Of a DNA stretch of 64,000 bases, positions 3,774 through 50,475 are shown piece after piece (the first letter of the stretch is position 1; each line of letters starts with the position of its first letter). The stretch covers positions 11,798-75,797 of the forward strand of contig JADFXX010000008.1 of the NCBI GenBank assembly GCA_015233335.1. The letters are read 5' to 3'. Source of the stretch: Candidatus Omnitrophota bacterium. Its GTDB lineage: Bacteria > Omnitrophota > Gorgyraeia > Zapsychrales > Fredricksoniimonadaceae. The notes beneath the pieces are model-generated. The model made no database searches and was not told the origin of the DNA. It worked only from the letters and a program-made list of their open reading frames with translations. The position numbers and the translations under genes were made by a program.

Positions 3774-4826
3774 ATGATATCTCATTTATTTGATCCAATT
3801 AAGATAGGGGATATCAATGTTCCCAACCGCATCATCATGGCGCCTCTCACTCGCTGCCGGGCGTCCGAAGGGCGTATCCCTAATGCGATGATGGCAGAGT
3901 ATTATGCTCAGCGTGCCTCAGCGGGTTTGATTATCAGTGAAGCGACATCAGTGACACCTATGGGAGTGGGTTATCCCGACACACCGGGGGTTTGGTCCCG
4001 TGAGCAGGTTGAGGGCTGGAAATTAGTAACCCATGCTGTTCATTGTGCAGGCGGTCGAATATTCCTTCAGCTTTGGCATGTGGGTCGGATTTCTGATCCT
4101 GTTTATCTTAATGGCGAACTTCCGGTAGCTCCAAGCGCAATAGCTCCTGCCGGTCATGTCAGTTTACTGCGCCCTAAGAAACCATATGTGACGCCGCGGG
4201 CCCTCGAATTAAGTGAAATTCCGGCAATTATCGAGGCCTATCGCAAGGGTGCCCAAAATGCAAAAGACGCGGGGTTTGACGGCGTTGAGGTCCATGGGGC
4301 CAACGGATATCTTCTGGATCAATTTTTACAGGATGGAACAAACAAAAGAACAGATCGTTATGGCGGCAATATTGAAAATCGCGCACGGCTTATGCTAGAG
4401 GTTCTCGATGCTGTCCTTTCAGTCTGGCCTGCCGGACGTGTTGGTATGCATTTAGCTCCCCGCGGGGATTCTAATGATATCAAGGATTCTAATCCCTCAG
4501 CAACCTTTGGGTATGTGGCCCGTGAGCTAGGCCAACGGCACCTTGCTTTTATCTGTACAAGGGAGTCTCTGGGTGAAAAACGGCTCTCTCCTTCCTTGAA
4601 AAAGGCTTTTGGCGGGTGTTTTATTGCCAATGAGGGCTTTAATCAAAAAACAGCAGAAGCGGAAATTGTCTTGGGGCAAGCCGATGCTGTTGCCTTTGGT
4701 CAGCTTTTTCTTGCTAATCCTGATCTTCCAGCCCGGTTTCTTTCCCAAGCAGCTTTAAACGTTGGCGATCCCCAAACTTTTTATGGATCCGGACCAAAAG
4801 GGTATATCGATTATCCCAGTTTATGA
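3774..4826 (+). CDS. NADH:flavin oxidoreductase, Old Yellow Enzyme family (N-ethylmaleimide reductase-like)
   Basis: Canonical OYE N-terminus (PIKIGDINVPNRIIMAPLTRCRA...) with the HGANGYLLDQFL and RYGGNIENRARL motifs. Confidence 0.9.
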   Translation: MISHLFDPIKIGDINVPNRIIMAPLTRCRASEGRIPNAMMAEYYAQRASAGLIISEATSVTPMGVGYPDTPGVWSREQVEGWKLVTHAVHCAGGRIFLQLWHVGRISDPVYLNGELPVAPSAIAPAGHVSLLRPKKPYVTPRALELSEIPAIIEAYRKGAQNAKDAGFDGVEVHGANGYLLDQFLQDGTNKRTDRYGGNIENRARLMLEVLDAVLSVWPAGRVGMHLAPRGDSNDIKDSNPSATFGYVARELGQRHLAFICTRESLGEKRLSPSLKKAFGGCFIANEGFNQKTAEAEIVLGQADAVAFGQLFLANPDLPARFLSQAALNVGDPQTFYGSGPKGYIDYPSL

Positions 4827-4858
4827 GTGTCCGGCCTCGAAGTAATCAAAGGATTAAT

Positions 4859-5230
4859 TTAGGTTTGAGAGTAGGTGGCTTTATATTCTTCCTGAGTCAT
4901 GGATTGATGCAGATAATCACGAAGCAAGTTGCGTTTTTCAGAAGGCAGATCTAAGAATTCTAAACCCACGTCATACCGGTATCGGCTGTTATTGTCTCGA
5001 TCAGAGATCCTGACCACACGGGCCGTTGTCTTGATAAAATTCTTAAATTCATGCAGGCGAATGCCCACCTCGAGCAGTGAATTAATGGGAAAATAAAGGT
5101 TTAACGGGATACAGATGCCCGTTTCAGAAATGTCCTTAATCCGCGATCCGCTGATCAAATTGCTTTTCATCTTGCGGAAAGAGACATTCAAGCTCACATT
5201 CCGGCGGTCACTCTTTCTTTTATTCTGCAT
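4859..5230 (-). CDS. PilZ domain protein (c-di-GMP receptor-like)
   Basis: RxxxR (SDRRNVSLNVSF) and D-x-S-x-x-G (KDISETGICI) motifs. Confidence 0.7.
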   Translation of the reverse strand: MQNKRKSDRRNVSLNVSFRKMKSNLISGSRIKDISETGICIPLNLYFPINSLLEVGIRLHEFKNFIKTTARVVRISDRDNNSRYRYDVGLEFLDLPSEKRNLLRDYLHQSMTQEEYKATYSQT

Positions 5231-10546: not shown

Positions 10547-11428
10547 AGAAATATCGGACTATTAGGCTTGTTTTTTGTGTTTTTCACTGTAACGCCGGCA
10601 CATGCAGATAAGATCAAAGCTGTTGCAACCTTCAGTGTTATCGCTGATATGGTTCGCCATGTTGCCGGGGACTCTATTGATTTGCTCGTTCTGGTCGGCC
10701 CCAATGCCGATGCCCATGAATATGAGCCGGTTCCCGCGGACTCCGTTCACATTTCCAAAGCGGATATTATTTTTGAGAATGGCTTACACTTAGAGCATTG
10801 GCTTGACAAGCTTTATACGGCAAGCGGCACAAAAGCAAAACGCATTATTGTCTCCCGGGGAGTTTCTGTCCGGACCATGGGGGATAATCCTCAGGAATCC
10901 GATCCGCATGCTTGGCAGGATGTCACTAATGTTATCCTTTACGCCCAAAATATTTGTGATGCGCTTGTGGTTCTCGACCCTGTGAACAGGGTGAAATATG
11001 AGGCCCAAACTAAGGATTACGTCAAACAACTGCAAGCATTGGATGGCTGGGTTAAAGCTCAGGTTGCTCTTATCTCCGTAGAAAAGCGTAAATTAGTCAC
11101 TAATCATGATGCTCTAGGGTATTTTGCCCGACGTTATGGTTTTCAAATCATTGGGGCTGTTATACCCTCTGCAACAACTGAAGCGGCAGATCCCTCTGCC
11201 TTGCAAACCGCCCAATTATTAGATATTATTAAAAAGAACAACGTGCGTGCTATATTCTCGGAAAACATGGCTAATCTTAAATTAGCCCAGACCCTTTCAA
11301 AAGAAGCAGGTGTTGCCGTTGGCCCTGAATTATACACAGATGCTTTAGGGGTGATTGGTAGTGATGCCCAGACGTATATTCAAATGATCAAACATAATGT
11401 TAAGATTTTTGTTGAGTATTTAAAATGA
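10478..11428 (+). CDS. znuA: Metal (Zn/Mn) ABC transporter periplasmic substrate-binding protein, ZnuA/TroA family
   Basis: Signal peptide ending TPAHA, then IKAVATFSVIADMVRHVAGD. TroA-fold family protein followed by the ATPase and permease. The start is uncertain: the table ORF begins at 10397 and reads through repeat A; the in-frame ATG at 10478 is preferred here. Confidence 0.75.
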   Translation: MSYCFAITGLCHCEPFYWAKQSFRNIGLLGLFFVFFTVTPAHADKIKAVATFSVIADMVRHVAGDSIDLLVLVGPNADAHEYEPVPADSVHISKADIIFENGLHLEHWLDKLYTASGTKAKRIIVSRGVSVRTMGDNPQESDPHAWQDVTNVILYAQNICDALVVLDPVNRVKYEAQTKDYVKQLQALDGWVKAQVALISVEKRKLVTNHDALGYFARRYGFQIIGAVIPSATTEAADPSALQTAQLLDIIKKNNVRAIFSENMANLKLAQTLSKEAGVAVGPELYTDALGVIGSDAQTYIQMIKHNVKIFVEYLK

Positions 11429-23482: not shown

Positions 23483-24467
23483 AACTCCGTTAGTTCTGCT
23501 GTTAATTCCTGTATTGCTGGCTATCGTGTATTTTGACCACAAACGAAGACAGAGCTCCTCGTTTCGATTTTCTTCGCTGTCTTTGATAGGCCAACTGGAA
23601 TCAACATGGCGCCTGCGTTGGAGCTTTGTACCGTTTCTCTTAAGGGTTTTGGTTTTAGTGTTATTATTAGTGGCATTAGCAGGCCCCCGAAAGCTTTTGG
23701 CAGTCTCTAAGTTAAATACCGAAGGCATTGATATAGTTCTCGCGCTGGATGTGTCCGGCAGCATGTCCGCTGAAGATTATGTGGTCAACGGACAGCGGAT
23801 CAGCCGGCTGGGTATTATTAAAAAAACAGTTGAGGATTTTATAGAGCAGCGCAAAACCGACCGTTTGGGATTGATCGTTTTTGGTTCACAGGCCTATACG
23901 GTGTGCCCTTTGACTCATGATCACGATTGGCTATTGGAAAATCTTCGTCAGGTGCGTTTGGGGGTCATTCAGGACAGTACCGCCATAGGCTCAGGGATCG
24001 CCACGTCATTGCTGCGATTGAAAAATAGCAAAGCTAAATCAAGGGTCATTGTTTTATTGACCGATGGGGTCAACAATTCCGGAAAGATCCTGCCGTTGGA
24101 TGCCGCTAAAATGGCCCAGGCTTTGGGGATCAAGATCTATACGATCGCTGCCGGCACCAAGGGCATCGTTCCGGTTCCGGTGACGGATGCTTTTGGCAAT
24201 CACTATTATGAGAACGCGCAGTTCGATCTGGATGAAGACAGCCTCAAGAAAATAGCGGATATGACCGGCGGTCAGTATTTTAGGGCGGCTGATACTGATT
24301 CGCTGCGTCAGATCTATCATCAGATCGATATGCTCGAAAAGACTAAGAGCGAGGAAAAAGGCTATAAGCTCTATGAGCCCACGTTCGGTTTTTTTGTGAT
24401 TGCGGCCCTGCTTTTATTGGCCTTGGAAATCATTTTAACCAATAGTTTGTTTTTGAAGATACCATGA
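23463..24467 (+). CDS. batA: vWA domain protein BatA-like
   Basis: N-terminal TM helices, then a vWA/MIDAS domain (DIVLALDVSGSM...LTDGVNN) and a C-terminal TM helix. Confidence 0.85.
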   Translation: MLMPEFKTPLVLLLIPVLLAIVYFDHKRRQSSSFRFSSLSLIGQLESTWRLRWSFVPFLLRVLVLVLLLVALAGPRKLLAVSKLNTEGIDIVLALDVSGSMSAEDYVVNGQRISRLGIIKKTVEDFIEQRKTDRLGLIVFGSQAYTVCPLTHDHDWLLENLRQVRLGVIQDSTAIGSGIATSLLRLKNSKAKSRVIVLLTDGVNNSGKILPLDAAKMAQALGIKIYTIAAGTKGIVPVPVTDAFGNHYYENAQFDLDEDSLKKIADMTGGQYFRAADTDSLRQIYHQIDMLEKTKSEEKGYKLYEPTFGFFVIAALLLLALEIILTNSLFLKIP

Positions 24468-25477
24468 ACTTTGCCAACCCCCAAGCTTGGGTATTATTGT
24501 GGCTATTGCCTTTGATCGCTCTAGCCCTGCATTTGTTTTATCAATACCGTCATCAGATGATGTCGCGTTTTATTCAAACTCATTTGCTTGATGAATTAGC
24601 TGAAGGTTTTAGTTTAAAGCGCTTACGACTCAAAGCCGTATTCCTGATGGCAGCTTTTGTATTGATGGTCGCGGCATTAAGCCGGCCCCAATGGGGATAT
24701 CATATGCGTGAAGTCAAACGTAATGGTTTAGATATTATGATAACGGTCGATGTGTCTAAAAGCATGCTGACACAGGATGTTAAGCCGTCCCGGCTTGAGA
24801 GAACCAAGCTTGCTGTCAAGGACTTGATCATGAAATTGGATGGTTCGGACCATATAGGTTTGATCGCTTTTGCGGGTGACGCGATGGTGATGTGTCCTTT
24901 AACGTATGATTATAACGGTTTTTTATTAAGCCTTGATGACCTAAGCGTTGATTCTATTCCCCGTGCCGGCACAAATCTTTCTGGGGCCATTGATGAAAGT
25001 GTTAAGGCGTATGAAGGAAGGGTTGATTCTGATAAGGCGGTGATTTTAGTGACAGATGGAGAAGAAGAAGAGGGCAATGCCTTGAATGCCGCCCGCAAGG
25101 CCCATGACAAGGGTGTGCGCATATATACAGTGGGGGTCGGCACGCAGGAAGGGGATTTGATCCAGGTGACCAATGCTGACGGACAGACAGAATTCCTCAA
25201 AGATTCTGACGGCAATGTGGTCAAGTCCCATTTAAATGAAAATTTATTACAGCAGATCGCCTATATCACAGGTGGTGCGTATGTCCGAAGTGCGGGGGCA
25301 GAATTTGGGCTGGATTATTTATATGAACGCCAATTATCAAAACTAAAGAAGCACGATATGCAGGAAAAAATGGCCAAGCTTTATGATGAGCGTTTTCAGT
25401 GGCCTTTAACTTTGGCATTTGTATTTTTATTAGCAGAAACTTTGATTTCAACTAGGAGAAGAAATGTCTTGCGGTAA
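24464..25477 (+). CDS. batB: vWA domain protein BatB-like
   Basis: TM helices, then a vWA domain (DIMITVDVSKSM...LVTDGEEEEG) and a C-terminal TM helix. Confidence 0.85.
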   Translation: MNFANPQAWVLLWLLPLIALALHLFYQYRHQMMSRFIQTHLLDELAEGFSLKRLRLKAVFLMAAFVLMVAALSRPQWGYHMREVKRNGLDIMITVDVSKSMLTQDVKPSRLERTKLAVKDLIMKLDGSDHIGLIAFAGDAMVMCPLTYDYNGFLLSLDDLSVDSIPRAGTNLSGAIDESVKAYEGRVDSDKAVILVTDGEEEEGNALNAARKAHDKGVRIYTVGVGTQEGDLIQVTNADGQTEFLKDSDGNVVKSHLNENLLQQIAYITGGAYVRSAGAEFGLDYLYERQLSKLKKHDMQEKMAKLYDERFQWPLTLAFVFLLAETLISTRRRNVLR

Positions 25478-25624
25478 AAGGGAATGGAAGAATATAGTTT
25501 TTCACGGCCGGCGCATGACCCCCATCCCCACAAGCTCGGCGCTTCGGGGGTATAGTTATAAGCACCCCCTGTGCGCCTGTGGGGTAGCTGGCCTTAGAAA
25601 AACTATATTCTTCCATTCCCTTTT
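25476..25624. repeat. 28-bp perfect inverted repeat (AAAAGGGAATGGAAGAATATAGTTTTTC) flanking a 93-bp GC-rich structured insert; candidate MITE or structured RNA
   Basis: Arms 25476-25503 and 25597-25624 are exact reverse complements. The insert has internal stems CCCCACA/TGTGGGG and GGGGG...CCCCC. Confidence 0.7.
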
Positions 25625-25634
25625 AGCTACATTC

Positions 25635-26567
25635 ATGATGCTTCCTTTTTTGGCTTGGGCTTCAGTTGAAGGTGATGTCAACAAAGCCAATGATCTTTAC
25701 AAGCAAGGCAAGTTTGATGACTCTTTAAAATTTTATCAAGAGGCCCTGGACCATGATGCAAAGTCGCCTGTTATTCCGTATGATTTGGGCACGGCCTTAT
25801 ACAAAAAAGGTGACTATGTGAAAGCCCGTGAATATTTACAAAAAGCCGCAGATGATAAAAGCTTGAAAGTGAAAACTCAAGCGGAATATAATTTAGGTAA
25901 TGTTCTTTACAAAACAGGAATACAAAAAGAGAATACTAATGTAGATGAAGCGATTTCGAATTTAGAGGACGCTTTGGGGCATTATGGACAGGCTTTAGCG
26001 CAAGAGCCTCAAGATCAGGACGCTAAATCTAATGAAGATTTCGTTAAAAAAGAGATCGAGCGTTTAAAGAAGAAAAAGCAAGAACAGCAGAAACAGAACC
26101 AACAACAGCAAAAACAGAACAAACAACAGCAACAAGATCAAAAACAGCAACAGCAAGATCAGCAGAAGCAGCCCCAGCAAAAGCAAGATCAAAAGAACCA
26201 AGAGAAGGACCAACAAAAGCAAGACCAGAAGCAACAAGAGAAGGACCAGCAAAAACAAAACGATCAGCAGAACCAACAAAGCCAACAAGATCAACAGAAA
26301 CAACAAGATCAACAGAAACAACAAGATCAACAGAAACAACAAGATCAACAAAACCAACAAGATCAGCAAAAACAACAAGATCAGCAGAAGCAACAGGACC
26401 AGCAAAAACAGCAGGACCAGCAGAATCAGCAGGAGAGTCAAAAAGACCTTGATCGTAAAGAAGCCCAAGATCTTTTAAAAGAATACCAGGACAATGAAGA
26501 GCCTAAAAAGCTTTTAAATTTTGCGCCAAAAAAAATAGACGACCGCCCTGTGCTTAAGGATTGGTAA
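25635..26567 (+). CDS. batC: TPR protein with long Gln/Lys-rich low-complexity region (BatC-like)
   Basis: Signal-like N-terminus MMLPFLAWASVEG, TPR repeats (LYKQGKFDDSLKFYQEALDHD...), then about 115 aa of QQKQ/DQQKQ repeats. The table ORF begins at 25464 and reads through the inverted-repeat element. Confidence 0.6.
   Translation: MMLPFLAWASVEGDVNKANDLYKQGKFDDSLKFYQEALDHDAKSPVIPYDLGTALYKKGDYVKAREYLQKAADDKSLKVKTQAEYNLGNVLYKTGIQKENTNVDEAISNLEDALGHYGQALAQEPQDQDAKSNEDFVKKEIERLKKKKQEQQKQNQQQQKQNKQQQQDQKQQQQDQQKQPQQKQDQKNQEKDQQKQDQKQQEKDQQKQNDQQNQQSQQDQQKQQDQQKQQDQQKQQDQQNQQDQQKQQDQQKQQDQQKQQDQQNQQESQKDLDRKEAQDLLKEYQDNEEPKKLLNFAPKKIDDRPVLKDW
26080..26440 (+). repeat. Coding tandem repeat (18-bp CAACAAGATCAACAGAAA-like units) encoding the poly-Q/K tract
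   Basis: Many near-identical units (caacaagatcaacagaaa x3, caagatcagcagaagcaacag...). The antisense reading gives a spurious poly-Leu ORF (26064-26468). Confidence 0.75.
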
Positions 26568-47371: not shown

Positions 47372-48364
47372 ATGGCTAAAATATTCTACGATAAAGATTG
47401 TAACATCGATGACATTAAGGATAAAACGATCGCGGTGGTCGGCTACGGCATTCAGGGCCGCGGCCAAGCCCTGAATTTGCGTGATAGCGGGTTAAAGGTG
47501 ATTGTGGCGCAAAGGCCGGGCGGGGTCAATTATGACCGTGCCATCAAGGATGGTTTTAAACCCATGTCTGTTCAAGAAGCCGCGAAAATCGCGGATGTGA
47601 TCATCATTTTAACGCAGGATCATTTACAGGCGGATATTTACAAAGATTCGATTAAGCCGTATTTGGCCCCGGGCAAGGCTTTGGCCTTTTCACACGGGTT
47701 TAATATCCATTTTAAATTCATAGTTCCTCCCAAAGACGTAGATGTCTTTATGATCGCGCCCAAAGGGCCGGGAGCATTGGTTCGCCGTCAGTTTGAAGAG
47801 GGGCGTGGAGTGCCGTGTTTGGTGGCGGTCGATCAGAATGCCACAGGCAAGGCTTTAAAAATCGCCTTGGCCTATGCCAAAGGTATCGGCGGTTCACGTG
47901 CGGGGATCATTCAGACGACCTTCAAAGAAGAAACTGAAACTGATTTGTTCGGCGAGCAAGCGGTTTTGTGCGGTGGGGCCAGCGAATTGATCAAGGCCGG
48001 TTTTGAAACCTTAGTCAAAGCCGGATACCAGCCGGAAATCGCGTATTTTGAATGTTGCCATGAATTGAAGTTGATCGTGGATTTGATCTATGAAGACGGT
48101 ATCCAGGGCATGCGCAAACGCGTCTCTGATACGGCCGAATACGGCGATATGACGCGTGGTCCACGCATTGTCAATGAGAGAACCCGCCGTGAAATGCAGA
48201 AAATACTCAAAGAGATCCAAAAAGGTCAATTTGCCAAGGAATGGATGGCAGAAAACAAGAACGGCCGCAAGAATTTCCTTAAGATGCGAAAAGCCGGCGA
48301 AAAGCACCTCGTTGAAAAGGTAGGCGCTCGACTTCGGGCTATGATGAGCTGGATGAAAAAGTAA
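47372..48364 (+). CDS. ilvC: Ketol-acid reductoisomerase
   Basis: [21 protein letters not shown]..., 330 aa. Confidence 0.95.
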
Positions 48365-48402
48365 AACTGTTGATACCAATACGCATAAGTAGTATATAAT
48401 CT

Positions 48403-48426
48403 AAGGGCGGCTCAACAGCCGCCCTT
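48403..48426 (+). terminator. Stem-loop terminator after ilvC
   Basis: AAGGGCGGCT-caac-AGCCGCCCTT (10-bp GC-rich stem), followed by an AT-rich tract. Confidence 0.55.
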
Positions 48427-48484
48427 AATGTTTAATACGAAGATAAATTTAGCATTGTTTGTGTTGATTATTTATAGCATGGAC

Positions 48485-48702
48485 GAAGGGATAGGGTTGT
48501 TGTTTTCAACTCACGGTCATTTTCTTAACGTCAAAAATTGCCTATTTTTTAGGTGTCTGAACAACTCGCCTTCAGCTTCTCTGGAAGCTTCAGGCTCGAA
48601 CAAGTTCAGACATCCCTCGCCCTTCGGCTCGGGATTCCCTAAAAAACAGTCAATTTTTAACTAAAAATGACAGTGAGTTGAAAACAACAACCCTATCCCT
48701 TC
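48485..48702 (+). repeat. Structured intergenic element copy 1, bracketed by a 39-bp inverted repeat (1 mismatch); candidate ncRNA or MITE
   Basis: Arm 48485-48523 (gaagggatagggttgttgttttcaactcacggtcatttt) pairs with the reverse-complementary arm 48664-48702. The ~140-nt core contains the hairpin AGCTTC-tctg-GAAGCT and the conserved block GTTCAGACATCCCTCGCCCTTCGGCTCGGGATTCCCT. Confidence 0.6.
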
Positions 48703-48744
48703 TCCGATTACTATTGCAACATTTGTACGCGTCTATTTGGGTTT

Positions 48745-48895
48745 AAGTTGTAAGGGAATCCCGAGCCGAGGGGCGAGGGATGGCTGAACTTGTCTGAGCT
48801 CTTTATTTCCAGAGAAATAAAGAGCGAGTTGTTCAGCCACCGCGACAACATAAGATTTTTGCCGTGAATAAAATGACCGTGATCTTTAAAAAACA
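48745..48895 (-). repeat. Structured intergenic element copy 2 (~80% identical to the copy 1 core), opposite orientation
   Basis: On the minus strand: TCACGGTCATTTT...CTGAACAACTCGC...GCTCTTTATTT-ctctgg-AAATAAAGAGC...GTTCAGCCATCCCTCGCCCCTCGGCTCGGGATTCCCT. The hairpin position is the same as in copy 1 and the stems are compensatory. Confidence 0.6.
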
Positions 48896-48948
48896 AATTA
48901 AACCCAAATAGCTGCTACTAAAGGGACAATTTTATAAAGGATAATTAT

Positions 48949-50475
48949 ATGAAAAACGACAAAGTTTTGATTTTCGATACAACTTTACGGGACGGAGAAC
49001 AAGCGCCGGGTGCGACGATGAGCGCTGAAGAAAAGTTGGAAATTGCTTTCTCTTTGGAGCGTTTAGGGGTTGACATCATTGAGGCGGGTTTTCCTGTATC
49101 TTCCAAAGGGGATTTTGACTCGGTGCAAAATGTGGCCCGCCATCTGAAGAATTCATGTGTCTGCGGTTTGGCGCGTTCAATCACCAAGGACATTGATGCG
49201 GTGATTGATGCGATCAAGCCGGCCCGGCATAGGCGCATCCATATTTTTTTAGCCACGTCCAAGATCCACCTGCAGCATAAATTAAAAAAGAGCCAGGATG
49301 AGATTGTGAAAATGGCTGTCGAATCAGTCAAATATGCCCGCAAGCGTATAGACAATATTGAATTTTCACCTGAAGATGCTTCTCGTACCGAAAAGACATT
49401 TTTGTACCGCATCTTAGAAGAGGTCATCAAGGCGGGTGCTACCACAGTCAACATCCCCGACACGGTCGGTTACAGCACTCCGCGGGAATATGGGGCTGTG
49501 ATTGCAGGGATCCGTAATAATGTTCCCAATATAGGCCGTTGTGTCATCTCAACCCATTGCCATGATGATTTGGGTTTAGGTGTCGCAAATTCGCTGAGCG
49601 GCGTCGAGAATGGGGCGCGTCAGGTGGAATGCACCATTAACGGTATCGGTGAGCGTGCGGGCAACGCCTCGATGGAAGAGGTTGTCATGGGCTTAAAAAC
49701 CCGTTGGGATTTTTACGGCTTGTCGACTAATATCAATACAAAAGAATTTTACCGCGCATCACGCCTGGTTTCAAAAGCTTCGGGATTTATAGTTCCGCCC
49801 AACAAGGCCGTTGTTGGCGCCAATGCCTTTCGTCACGAGTCAGGTATACATCAGGATGGAGTTTTAAAGGAACGGCGCACCTATGAAATTATGAACCCTG
49901 AGGATGTGGGTGTTCCTTCTCATGAGGGGTTGGTGTTAGGCAAACATTCCGGTCGGCATGCTTTTATAGACCGTTTGAAAAGATTAGGCATTGTGCTGTC
50001 TGAAACAGATGTGGCTTTAGCCTTTGTCCGTTTTAAGGATTTGGCGGATAAAAAGAAAGAAGTTTATGACGAGGATTTGTGGGCGTTGATCGAAGATGAA
50101 GGTCATCGTACGCATGTGGCCTACACCCTTGTTGATTTGATTTCAACCAGCGGCTCAAATATAGCGCCCAGGGTCGTTGTCACCTTGCAGTATAAAGGGA
50201 AAAAACAAACCAAAGAATCAACCGGCGACGGTCCGGTGGATGCCTGTTATAAGGCCATTGAGTCTTTGACCCAATTAAAGGTCAACTTGCTCGACTACAG
50301 CATTAAATCGGTCACCCAAGGGAAAGATGCGTTGGGTGAGGTGACGGTAAAAACTTCTATTGACGGACAGGCGTTTATCGGCCGGGCCGCCACGACCGAT
50401 ATCATAGAGGCTTCTGCTAAAGCCTATATCAACGCGATTAATAAATTTATGGCTCAGCAAAATCTAAAAAGATGA
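48949..50475 (+). CDS. leuA: 2-isopropylmalate synthase / (R)-citramalate synthase family (LeuA with C-terminal regulatory domain)
   Basis: FDTTLRDGEQAPG..., a HCHDDLG-type metal site, 508 aa with a LeuA dimerisation/regulatory C-domain. Confidence 0.85.
   Translation: MKNDKVLIFDTTLRDGEQAPGATMSAEEKLEIAFSLERLGVDIIEAGFPVSSKGDFDSVQNVARHLKNSCVCGLARSITKDIDAVIDAIKPARHRRIHIFLATSKIHLQHKLKKSQDEIVKMAVESVKYARKRIDNIEFSPEDASRTEKTFLYRILEEVIKAGATTVNIPDTVGYSTPREYGAVIAGIRNNVPNIGRCVISTHCHDDLGLGVANSLSGVENGARQVECTINGIGERAGNASMEEVVMGLKTRWDFYGLSTNINTKEFYRASRLVSKASGFIVPPNKAVVGANAFRHESGIHQDGVLKERRTYEIMNPEDVGVPSHEGLVLGKHSGRHAFIDRLKRLGIVLSETDVALAFVRFKDLADKKKEVYDEDLWALIEDEGHRTHVAYTLVDLISTSGSNIAPRVVVTLQYKGKKQTKESTGDGPVDACYKAIESLTQLKVNLLDYSIKSVTQGKDALGEVTVKTSIDGQAFIGRAATTDIIEASAKAYINAINKFMAQQNLKR

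Follow-up and report, generated by a model that had tools for sequence, protein, structure and literature searches.

A fold-back repeat family in the ilvC-leuA spacer of a Candidatus Omnitrophota bacterium, probably a new MITE/ERIC-like element

The DNA analyzed here is a stretch of 64,000 nucleotides from a Candidatus Omnitrophota bacterium (contig JADFXX010000008.1, positions 11,798 to 75,797), hereafter called the window. In it, the genes ilvC and leuA are separated by an unusually long spacer that carries, in opposite orientations, two copies of a non-coding fold-back repeat of about 220 bp, the family of which we call type-1. The family exists, its copies are present or absent at orthologous sites, and its seven helices are kept by paired changes. 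We consider it likely that the spacer owes its content to two separate, old insertions of a repeat of the kind of the miniature inverted-repeat transposable elements (MITEs), ERIC and Correia, with the palindrome kept at the level of DNA. The original prediction, made from the letters of this DNA, had offered three readings of the same region: two paired small RNAs, a locus resembling type I toxin-antitoxin systems, or a small mobile element. A new MITE/ERIC-like element is the best supported of the three, given the empty sites and the dispersed, decayed copies described below; the small RNA reading lacks its expected signatures, and the toxin-antitoxin reading relies on open reading frames (ORFs) that are broken in most copies of the family.

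The two copies in the window and the type-1 family

The two type-1 copies of the spacer are as follows, with the methods by which each was delimited in parentheses.

48485..48702, forward strand: copy 1, full-length type-1 fold-back element of 218 bp (profile hidden Markov model, covariance model, fold)
48733..48911, reverse strand: copy 2, type-1 element of another subfamily, truncated at its 3' side (repeat finder, profile hidden Markov model, covariance model)

Copy 1 was matched by the profile hidden Markov model (HMM) of the family at E = 8e-54 and, in its core (48516-48671), by the covariance model at 155.6 bits. It folds at -116 kcal/mol (z = -16.6 against shuffled sequence), well below the shuffles on either strand. 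Its terminal stem, P1/P1b/P2, is the inverted repeat 48485-48523/48664-48702, inside which lie P3-P4 and then a three-way junction bearing P5+P6 and P7; the tip hairpin P6 reads AGCTTC-TCTG-GAAGCT and P7 reads ATCCCTCGCC-CTTC-GGCTCGGGAT. The 39-bp inverted repeat previously described as bracketing copy 1 is real (97% complementary), but it does not stand apart from the element: it is the family's own terminal stem, P1 plus P2. Its pairing is unusually complete here because the internal loop of the family has been swapped for the perfectly complementary TCAACTC/GAGTTGA and because the opposite arm mirrors a change of three bases (AAATTT to AGGGTT).

Copy 2 was matched at E = 1.8e-41 over model positions 3-167 and at 112.4 bits by the covariance model, and its fold of -69 kcal/mol gives a z of about -7.4 against shuffled sequence, on either strand. 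We count it as truncated because the 3' strands of P2-P4 are missing. Its termini, CTATTTGG...CCAAATAG, are common to L027 and L013b, and its P6 tip, GCTCTTTATTTC-TCTG-GAAATAAAGAGC, is common to L013b (L-numbers are labels of the compared loci or contigs, and L013b stands for L013:5122-5346). An inverted repeat of 19 nt that is its own and unrelated (48733-48751/48893-48911, 95%), absent from the original prediction, closes this copy, and the repeat finder also recovered its 12-bp tip hairpin.

The two copies had been predicted to be about 80% identical and inverted. The repeat finder recovered the corresponding inverted arms, one pair at 48594-48645/48748-48799 (52 nt, 88% complementary) and a second at 48497-48586/48807-48896 (90 nt, 73% complementary), and pairwise alignment gave a mean column identity of 78%. 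Over the full length, the identity is 68%, and copies from other genomes resemble either of the two at least as closely, which argues for old, separate insertions and not for a local inverted duplication. Each conserved block of the original prediction occurs within the window only in this spacer, once per copy; block TCACGGTCATTTT matches additionally once, with one mismatch, in the 3' arm of copy 1, and the 30-nt conserved block had 0 matches in shuffles. The covariance model of the family core found exactly two copies in the window. The compensated tip hairpin noticed at the outset (AGCTTC/GAAGCT in copy 1, GCTCTTTATTT/AAATAAAGAGC in copy 2) was also recovered; its loop, given there as CTCTGG, is preferably taken as a TCTG tetraloop closed by a C-G pair.

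By pattern scans and profile searches, we found about 24 type-1 copies in metagenome-assembled genomes (MAGs) of Omnitrophota and in metagenomes, the contigs coming from peat and groundwater samples. A degenerate pattern, made of the junction of the second hairpin and its flank, matched two Omnitrophota MAGs among 185,579 GTDB species genomes, a strict search that misses variant copies. Scanning of metagenome contigs with a 24-nt hairpin gave 43 loci of two classes: some 20 low-GC contigs bear the whole element of about 220 bp, and 25 matches in high-GC soil contigs have just the short hairpin in common with it, in these contigs a generic palindrome of the REP-like kind. Profile searches of the collected sequence added two divergent copies. 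At L013:5122-5346, P7 is replaced by the unrelated perfect hairpin ATTTAAGAC-TGAA-GTCTTAAAT and P5 is also different, and at L057:4172-4391 the inner stem of P7 is flipped, with GGC/GCC in place of GCC/GGC. That P7 looks invariant in the copies recovered by pattern is therefore due to ascertainment. The covariance model, built on a 156-nt core, returned known copies only from 283 kb, and together with the profile HMM it found no further copies in the window or in about 129 kb from the ilvC relatives. Four pattern scans of viral contigs gave no true match, with three matches to the terminus pattern attributable to chance, and blastn against plasmids and phages gave no match to the element. As far as searched, the type-1 family is confined to one clade of Omnitrophota.

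Full-length copies measure 217-225 bp and share one anatomy, given here on the strand of window copy 1. The terminal stem P1 is (CATTG)TAAGGGATAAATTTGTTCTTT, with terminal inverted repeats of about 26 bp, and is followed by the internal loop TCGCTCC/GTCGCTTC, which contains a small helix. P2, GTCGATTTT, leads to a fixed TTAAC bulge, and P3, GCCAAAGG, and P4, TCTCATGCTTC, lead to the three-way junction. There, P5 (CTGAAC/GTTCAG) encloses an internal loop that does not vary, AACTC/TCAAACA, and the hairpin of the tip, P6, which is variable and has a TCTG loop; P7 comes last. Most copies have (CATTG)TAAGGGATAAATTTGTTCTTT / AAAGAACAAATTTATCCCTTA(CAATG) as their termini, and another subfamily has CTATTTGGATTCAATTT...

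Paired changes, insertion sites and decay

Covariation was computed on 21 sequences and 79 pairs in the seven helices, with 500 shuffles as the control. Standard pairs occupy 90.5% of the cells, compared with 80.9% in shuffled data and 32-53% in controls in which the partners were slid. Both sides have changed in 43 of the 79 pairs (18.0 +/- 2.6 shuffled, at most 16 partner-slid) and in 129 cells (31.6 shuffled, at most 35 partner-slid), and 0 of the 500 shuffles reached any of the observed measures. Independently, RNAalifold predicted 55 pairs, 28 of them with compensatory changes. No mismatched pair was seen in L019, in the partial L045 and in L042, the copy from which the structure was derived. 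The covariation first noticed in a pair of copies is hence borne out in seven helices across about 21 copies, more strongly than two copies could reveal. The original prediction read the covariation as selection on structure rather than on the two small ORFs overlapping the copies (48428-48664, forward strand, and 48711-48896, reverse strand), and these ORFs are broken in most copies. Regarding the strand on which the structure is kept, G.U and A.C pairs are found 23 and 24 times in this same set, without an excess of G.U, and splitting these counts by orientation to the neighboring genes revealed no bias.

At the ilvC-leuA site, the spacer measures 584 bp (580 bp in the original prediction, which called it oversized), compared with 86-177 nt in five relatives. 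These relatives have IlvC proteins 91-92% identical to that of the window and the same fba-ilvC-leuA-aroE-pilD order, and all five have an empty site, their spacers being 89 nt in L046, 177 nt in L047/L048, 138 nt in L050/L051, 86 nt in L052 and 88 nt in L053. A second site, between ribF and mraZ, is empty in L060/L061 (143 nt, terminator only), filled in L057 (606 nt) and L003 (about 500 nt), and internally deleted in L062, where only the first 30 nt or so of the 5' arm are left (1070-1100) and join sequence that lies 37 nt past the element in L003.

The copies are intergenic, stand at gene ends in either orientation, and are often beside or inside other fold-back repeats. About nine run in the direction of the upstream gene, and some 11 are antisense or divergent. 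Their neighbors include ilvC/leuA, ribF, pgk, icd/lipB-like and recG-like genes and a DUF819 gene; only ribF recurs, at three ribF-mraZ sites, and an all-against-all comparison of the neighboring ORFs disclosed no linked protein gene, apart from ribF at its one shared site and a few orthologous flanks. At three ribF sites (L003, L040 and L062) and in L033, the stop codon of the neighbor lies inside the terminus of the element; for example, the ribF end ...YFCKG* is encoded by TGT AAG GGN TAA within it.

Several copies are decayed or rearranged, as is usual for mobile repeats. L013:5358-5443 is a mini-derivative of 86 bp in which both type-1 termini stand alone around a 43-nt core, L040 contains an inverted solo 5' arm of type-1, and in L057 a perfect outer repeat of 24 bp encloses both the type-1 copy and a member of a second fold-back family. 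In L002, a 909-bp insertion sequence (IS) of the IS1595 family (554-1462; DDE_Tnp_IS1595 at 1.6e-33, plus Zn_ribbon_IS1595) sits in the left terminus of a type-1 element. We considered whether type-1 derives from this IS and rejected the idea: the IS has different termini, GGTAATTATAAAAAGTTTGG / CCAAATCTTTTATAATCACC, and its own 8-bp target duplication, TAAATTTA, which indicate that it was inserted into the element and did not give rise to the family. None of the other loci contains its transposase.

Interpretation of type-1 and comparison with known repeats

MITEs have been described as terminal repeats around a core that form long stem-loops, lie at the 3' ends of genes and are co-transcribed with them, those of the ERIC type having TA at both termini (PMC3184786). 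The features of type-1 fit this published description, and a non-autonomous repeat of the MITE kind is the reading we favor. The size is small (below about 500 bp), coding capacity is lacking, as the ORFs do not persist from copy to copy and Pfam gives no match to them, terminal inverted repeats are present, and presence or absence at orthologous sites is seen at both ilvC-leuA and ribF-mraZ. TA flanks both ends in 15 of 18 copies, with GA/TC and TC/GA as the exceptions. As a sign of target duplication, TA is ambiguous because it is its own complement; the two exceptions are complementary and not direct, as expected if the stem simply extends.

Several observations weigh against this interpretation. 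Candidate boundaries were tested for target-site duplications of 2-10 bp and only the ambiguous TA appeared; CGTG stands on both sides of the L057 copy only, and the available empty sites are too diverged to fix the junctions. No autonomous IS with the same termini was present in 488 kb of collected sequence, where the sole transposase seen was that of the L002 insertion, whose termini differ. The apparent copy number is low, with one or two copies per contig, contigs of 0.27-1.3 Mb included: there is one pattern match on each of the 0.27-, 0.34- and 1.29-Mb contigs, two copies in the window, and two plus the mini-derivative on the L013 contig. Only 2 of the 185,579 species genomes match the strict pattern, with the limit on variants already given. 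The fold, moreover, is kept even among copies that are merely 57-70% identical, and invariance is commoner at the unpaired junction bases (26/60) than at paired ones (32/157). Such an excess of invariant junction bases is not expected if a selfish repeat simply decays neutrally, and it hints that the folded form has a function; together with the complete compensation of the seven helices, it sets type-1 apart from an ordinary decaying repeat. That type-1 is a functional folded nucleic acid, either a new hairpin-dependent mobile DNA with a structure-specific enzyme or a mobile non-coding RNA with a role in the cell, we regard as a minor possibility.

Among known repeats, ERIC and Correia are close to type-1. 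With ERIC/IRU, the imperfect palindromes of 127 bp of the Enterobacteriaceae (PMC3184786), it shares a non-coding palindrome found in transcribed intergenic regions in either orientation, TA at both termini, a long stem-loop, and presence or absence at orthologous sites (PMC3184786). It has no sequence similarity to ERIC and is longer (about 220 bp), its tip branches at a three-way junction into two additional hairpins, its copy number seems far lower, and its hosts belong to a different phylum. The Correia elements of Neisseria (CREE/NEMIS) are likewise MITE-like, their terminal inverted repeats measure about 26 bp, and TA is found where they are inserted; they too lie close to genes, whose 3' or 5' ends they sometimes form, have no known cognate transposase and give hairpin transcripts. 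In type-1, however, no IHF site or promoter was identified, the copy number is low as opposed to hundreds per genome, and the internal structure is far more elaborate and covaries.

The type-1 element would have been moved, now or formerly, in trans by an enzyme that reads its termini, possibly in folded single-stranded DNA, and its palindrome would be kept at the DNA level and not as RNA from one strand. The balance of G.U and A.C pairs irrespective of orientation, the copies free of mismatches, and the complementary loop and mirrored change of copy 1 speak for the DNA level. This upkeep might come from selection for hairpin formation, or for folded single-stranded DNA recognized by a structure-specific enzyme; alternatively, it might come from templated correction of quasi-palindromes during replication. 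Template-switch mutagenesis produces multi-base mirrored changes, such as the one in copy 1. Both explanations are compatible with the absence of a G.U preference. Both window copies may be passengers in the leuA leader or in an intercistronic transcript, made from a promoter of leuA's own or by read-through from ilvC, in which each copy would form a very stable hairpin or the two would possibly pair in a duplex of 150 bp.

A mechanistic variant of the MITE-like interpretation, rather than its opposite, is that type-1 is a folded single-stranded DNA site read by a recombinase or transposase specific for its structure. Covariation extends to every helix, with the TTAAC bulge, the AACTC/TCAAACA loop and the junction bases staying fixed; G.U is not favored over A.C, unrelated perfect hairpins can take the place of P7 and P6 (L013b, L057), and insertions tend to fall in or beside other hairpin repeats. 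PATEs, which derive from IS200/IS605, and the attC sites of integrons are similar to type-1 in that structure prevails over sequence and unpaired bases are fixed within variable stems, and this likeness makes recognition of type-1 as folded single-stranded DNA plausible. However, those systems are without long terminal inverted repeats, which are more typical of derivatives of DDE transposons, and they are tied to Y1/HUH transposases or integron integrases, whereas no tyrosine or HUH recombinase or integrase is linked to any type-1 copy. The R/L-box motifs of attC are also absent, in that RYYYAAC/GTTRRRY does not occur as a pair. Taken together, we hold this variant to be rather unlikely.

An equally improbable explanation, to our judgment, is that type-1 is a structured and perhaps mobile non-coding RNA gene whose closing stem merely mimics terminal repeats, such that the window copies would be a pair of small RNAs. 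It draws on the strong covariation (90.5% of cells paired, 43/79 double changes, 0/500 shuffles), the conserved loop sequences, the very negative folding z-scores, and a possible extra G.U pair (GGTG/CATC) that would favor the forward strand. For an RNA read from one strand, however, G.U should not merely equal A.C, nor should orientation relative to the neighboring genes be random. In addition, the window's spacer shows no promoter or terminator in the scans except the hairpin of ilvC, the terminus overlaps the neighbor's stop codon in the four loci named above, some copies are nested or have lost parts and an IS has split one of them, close relatives do without the element, and no Rfam family matches.

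The position between ilvC and leuA, downstream of a possible promoter, could suggest a cis-regulatory leader or attenuator of leuA for branched-chain amino-acid control. The same element, however, also stands beside genes that have nothing to do with amino-acid synthesis, is missing from precisely this position in five relatives, and matches no T-box, leader peptide or riboswitch, and one of the two copies is antisense, which leaves this explanation very improbable; the distribution of the element excludes a role as a leucine-specific regulator. Finally, a type I toxin-antitoxin or small-protein locus, in which the two small ORFs existing in the window would be functional, was rejected and deserves hardly any weight: the ORFs are frame-shifted or carry in-frame stop codons in most family members, the length of the region varies among copies by non-multiples of three, the longest ORF switches frame and strand from copy to copy, neither ORF matches Pfam, and the compensatory stem changes would amount to radical amino-acid changes.

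Surroundings of the copies and other fold-back repeats

The spacer separates ilvC (47372-48364; Pfam KARI_N/KARI_C) from leuA (48949-50475; HMGL-like/LeuA_dimer), and around the two copies it contains these further features.

48370..48400, forward strand: candidate sigma-70-type leuA promoter, TTGATA-17 nt-TATATAAT (inferred from sequence)
48402..48427, forward strand: terminator-like G+C-rich hairpin, TAAGGGCGGCT-CAAC-AGCCGCCCTTA (terminator scan)
48439..48470, forward strand: possible remnants of repeat termini, GAAGATAAATTTAGCATTGTTTGTGTTGATT (by eye, low confidence)
48703..48732, no strand assigned: 30-nt stretch between the copies, TCCGATTACTATTGCAACATTTGTACGCGT (read from sequence)
48919..48934, forward strand: TAAAGGGACAATTTTA, a terminus-like fragment or a duplicated leuA ribosome-binding region (by eye, low confidence)

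The segment 48370-48400, which begins immediately 3' of the ilvC stop codon, may be the leuA promoter, judging from its hexamers, both of which are kept in L046, L050, L052 and L053 around a variable intervening sequence; the promoter scan of the window did not call it. If this promoter is real, both elements lie within the 5' leader of leuA. The ilvC-side hairpin begins 1-2 nt past the -10 box of the candidate promoter and is kept in the spacers of all relatives (L046, L047, L050, L052 and L053); it is not part of the fold-back element. It was also the only feature that the promoter and terminator scan, limited to the window, found in the spacer. Rfam at gathering thresholds found nothing in the whole window except three tRNAs, and at permissive E-values no family, T-box, Leu leader, 6S and HEARO included, reached its threshold over the spacer; the best sub-threshold matches were long hairpins of the microRNA type and MicX, the latter on the ilvC terminator at 21.9 bits against a threshold of 75. 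These searches agree with the earlier view that the spacer has no T-box or leader-peptide features, as no T-box, leader-peptide or riboswitch family was matched.

The smaller fragments are more tentative. By eye only, the stretch between the copies resembles sequence beside the nested repeats of L057. The segment 48439-48470 resembles the type-1 terminus GTAAGGGATAAATTT and the type-3 arm CATTGTNTTT (type-3 is described below), a likeness under the threshold of the profile search. The native ribosome-binding region of leuA, TAAAGGATAATTATATG, lies directly 3' of TAAAGGGACAATTTTA, as compared with the empty sites in L052 and L053. The relative L047 carries in its ilvC-leuA spacer (11010-11040, 11090-11165) a P7-type palindrome and a second one, GTGTCTTGCGAGCGAAGCAATC...GATTGCCACGTCGCCTTCGGCTCCTCGCAATGACAC, instead of type-1.

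The P7 hairpin, ATCCCGAGCC-NNNN-GGCGAGGGAT, is a stand-alone REP-like repeat in L005-L010 and other high-GC soil loci, often in tandem or inverted arrays. In this respect, type-1 is similar to REP/BIME, since its P7 exists as a stand-alone G+C-rich palindrome in high-GC soil contigs and in L047, and both cluster in mosaics; REPs, however, are single hairpins of 20-40 nt, whereas in type-1 the REP-like hairpin is one replaceable module of 220 bp.

Two further families accompany type-1. Type-2 fold-back repeats, of about 175 nt (GAGATGAATAGCTATTATG...CATAATAGCTGTTCATCTC), were found at L013 419-592 and also in L001, L040, L042 and L057; they adjoin the 3' side of type-1 at 14-80 nt in five loci, their stems covary, and the DNA fold has z = -12. 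The type-3 element has perfect arms of 24 bp, CATTGTATTTCCTTCTCAGGCACG / CGTGCCTGAGAAGGAAATACAATG, and its terminus begins CATTGT, as that of type-1 does. It encloses type-2 plus type-1 in L057 (about 3953-4415) and a different G+C-rich core in L003 (about 4700-4860), and the sequence CAGGCACG that often precedes type-1 elsewhere is explained by an enclosing type-3 element. In L040, a whole contig of 1559 nt, convergent ribF 3' ends with 78% nucleotide identity flank type-1, type-2 and the inverted solo arm; this arrangement may reflect either a genuine inverted duplication or a chimera assembled across the fold-back repeats. Elsewhere in the window, at 25475-25625, lies another fold-back element, whose G+C-rich core of 93 bp is enclosed by perfect terminal inverted repeats of 29 bp, TAAAAGGGAATGGAAGAATATAGTTTTTC / GAAAAACTATATTCTTCCATTCCCTTTTA; the stop codon of ORF 24464-25477 is within its left repeat, and the reading frame of ORF 25464-26567 would run across the element.

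Repeat insertions, and not a new regulator, in this way account for the anomalous 584-bp spacer within a conserved operon of amino-acid biosynthesis, and neither two spurious ORFs nor a "novel sRNA" (small RNA) need be annotated by mistake. At least three families of nested fold-back repeats are documented for the uncultivated phylum Omnitrophota, where they remodel intergenic regions, give stop codons to neighboring genes and probably break metagenome assemblies. The seven compensated helices of type-1, without a G.U preference, offer a natural test case for selection on hairpins versus templated palindrome correction in bacterial DNA, and, if recognition in the folded form proves true, type-1 would represent a class of mobile DNA, new and dependent on hairpins, from an uncultivated phylum.

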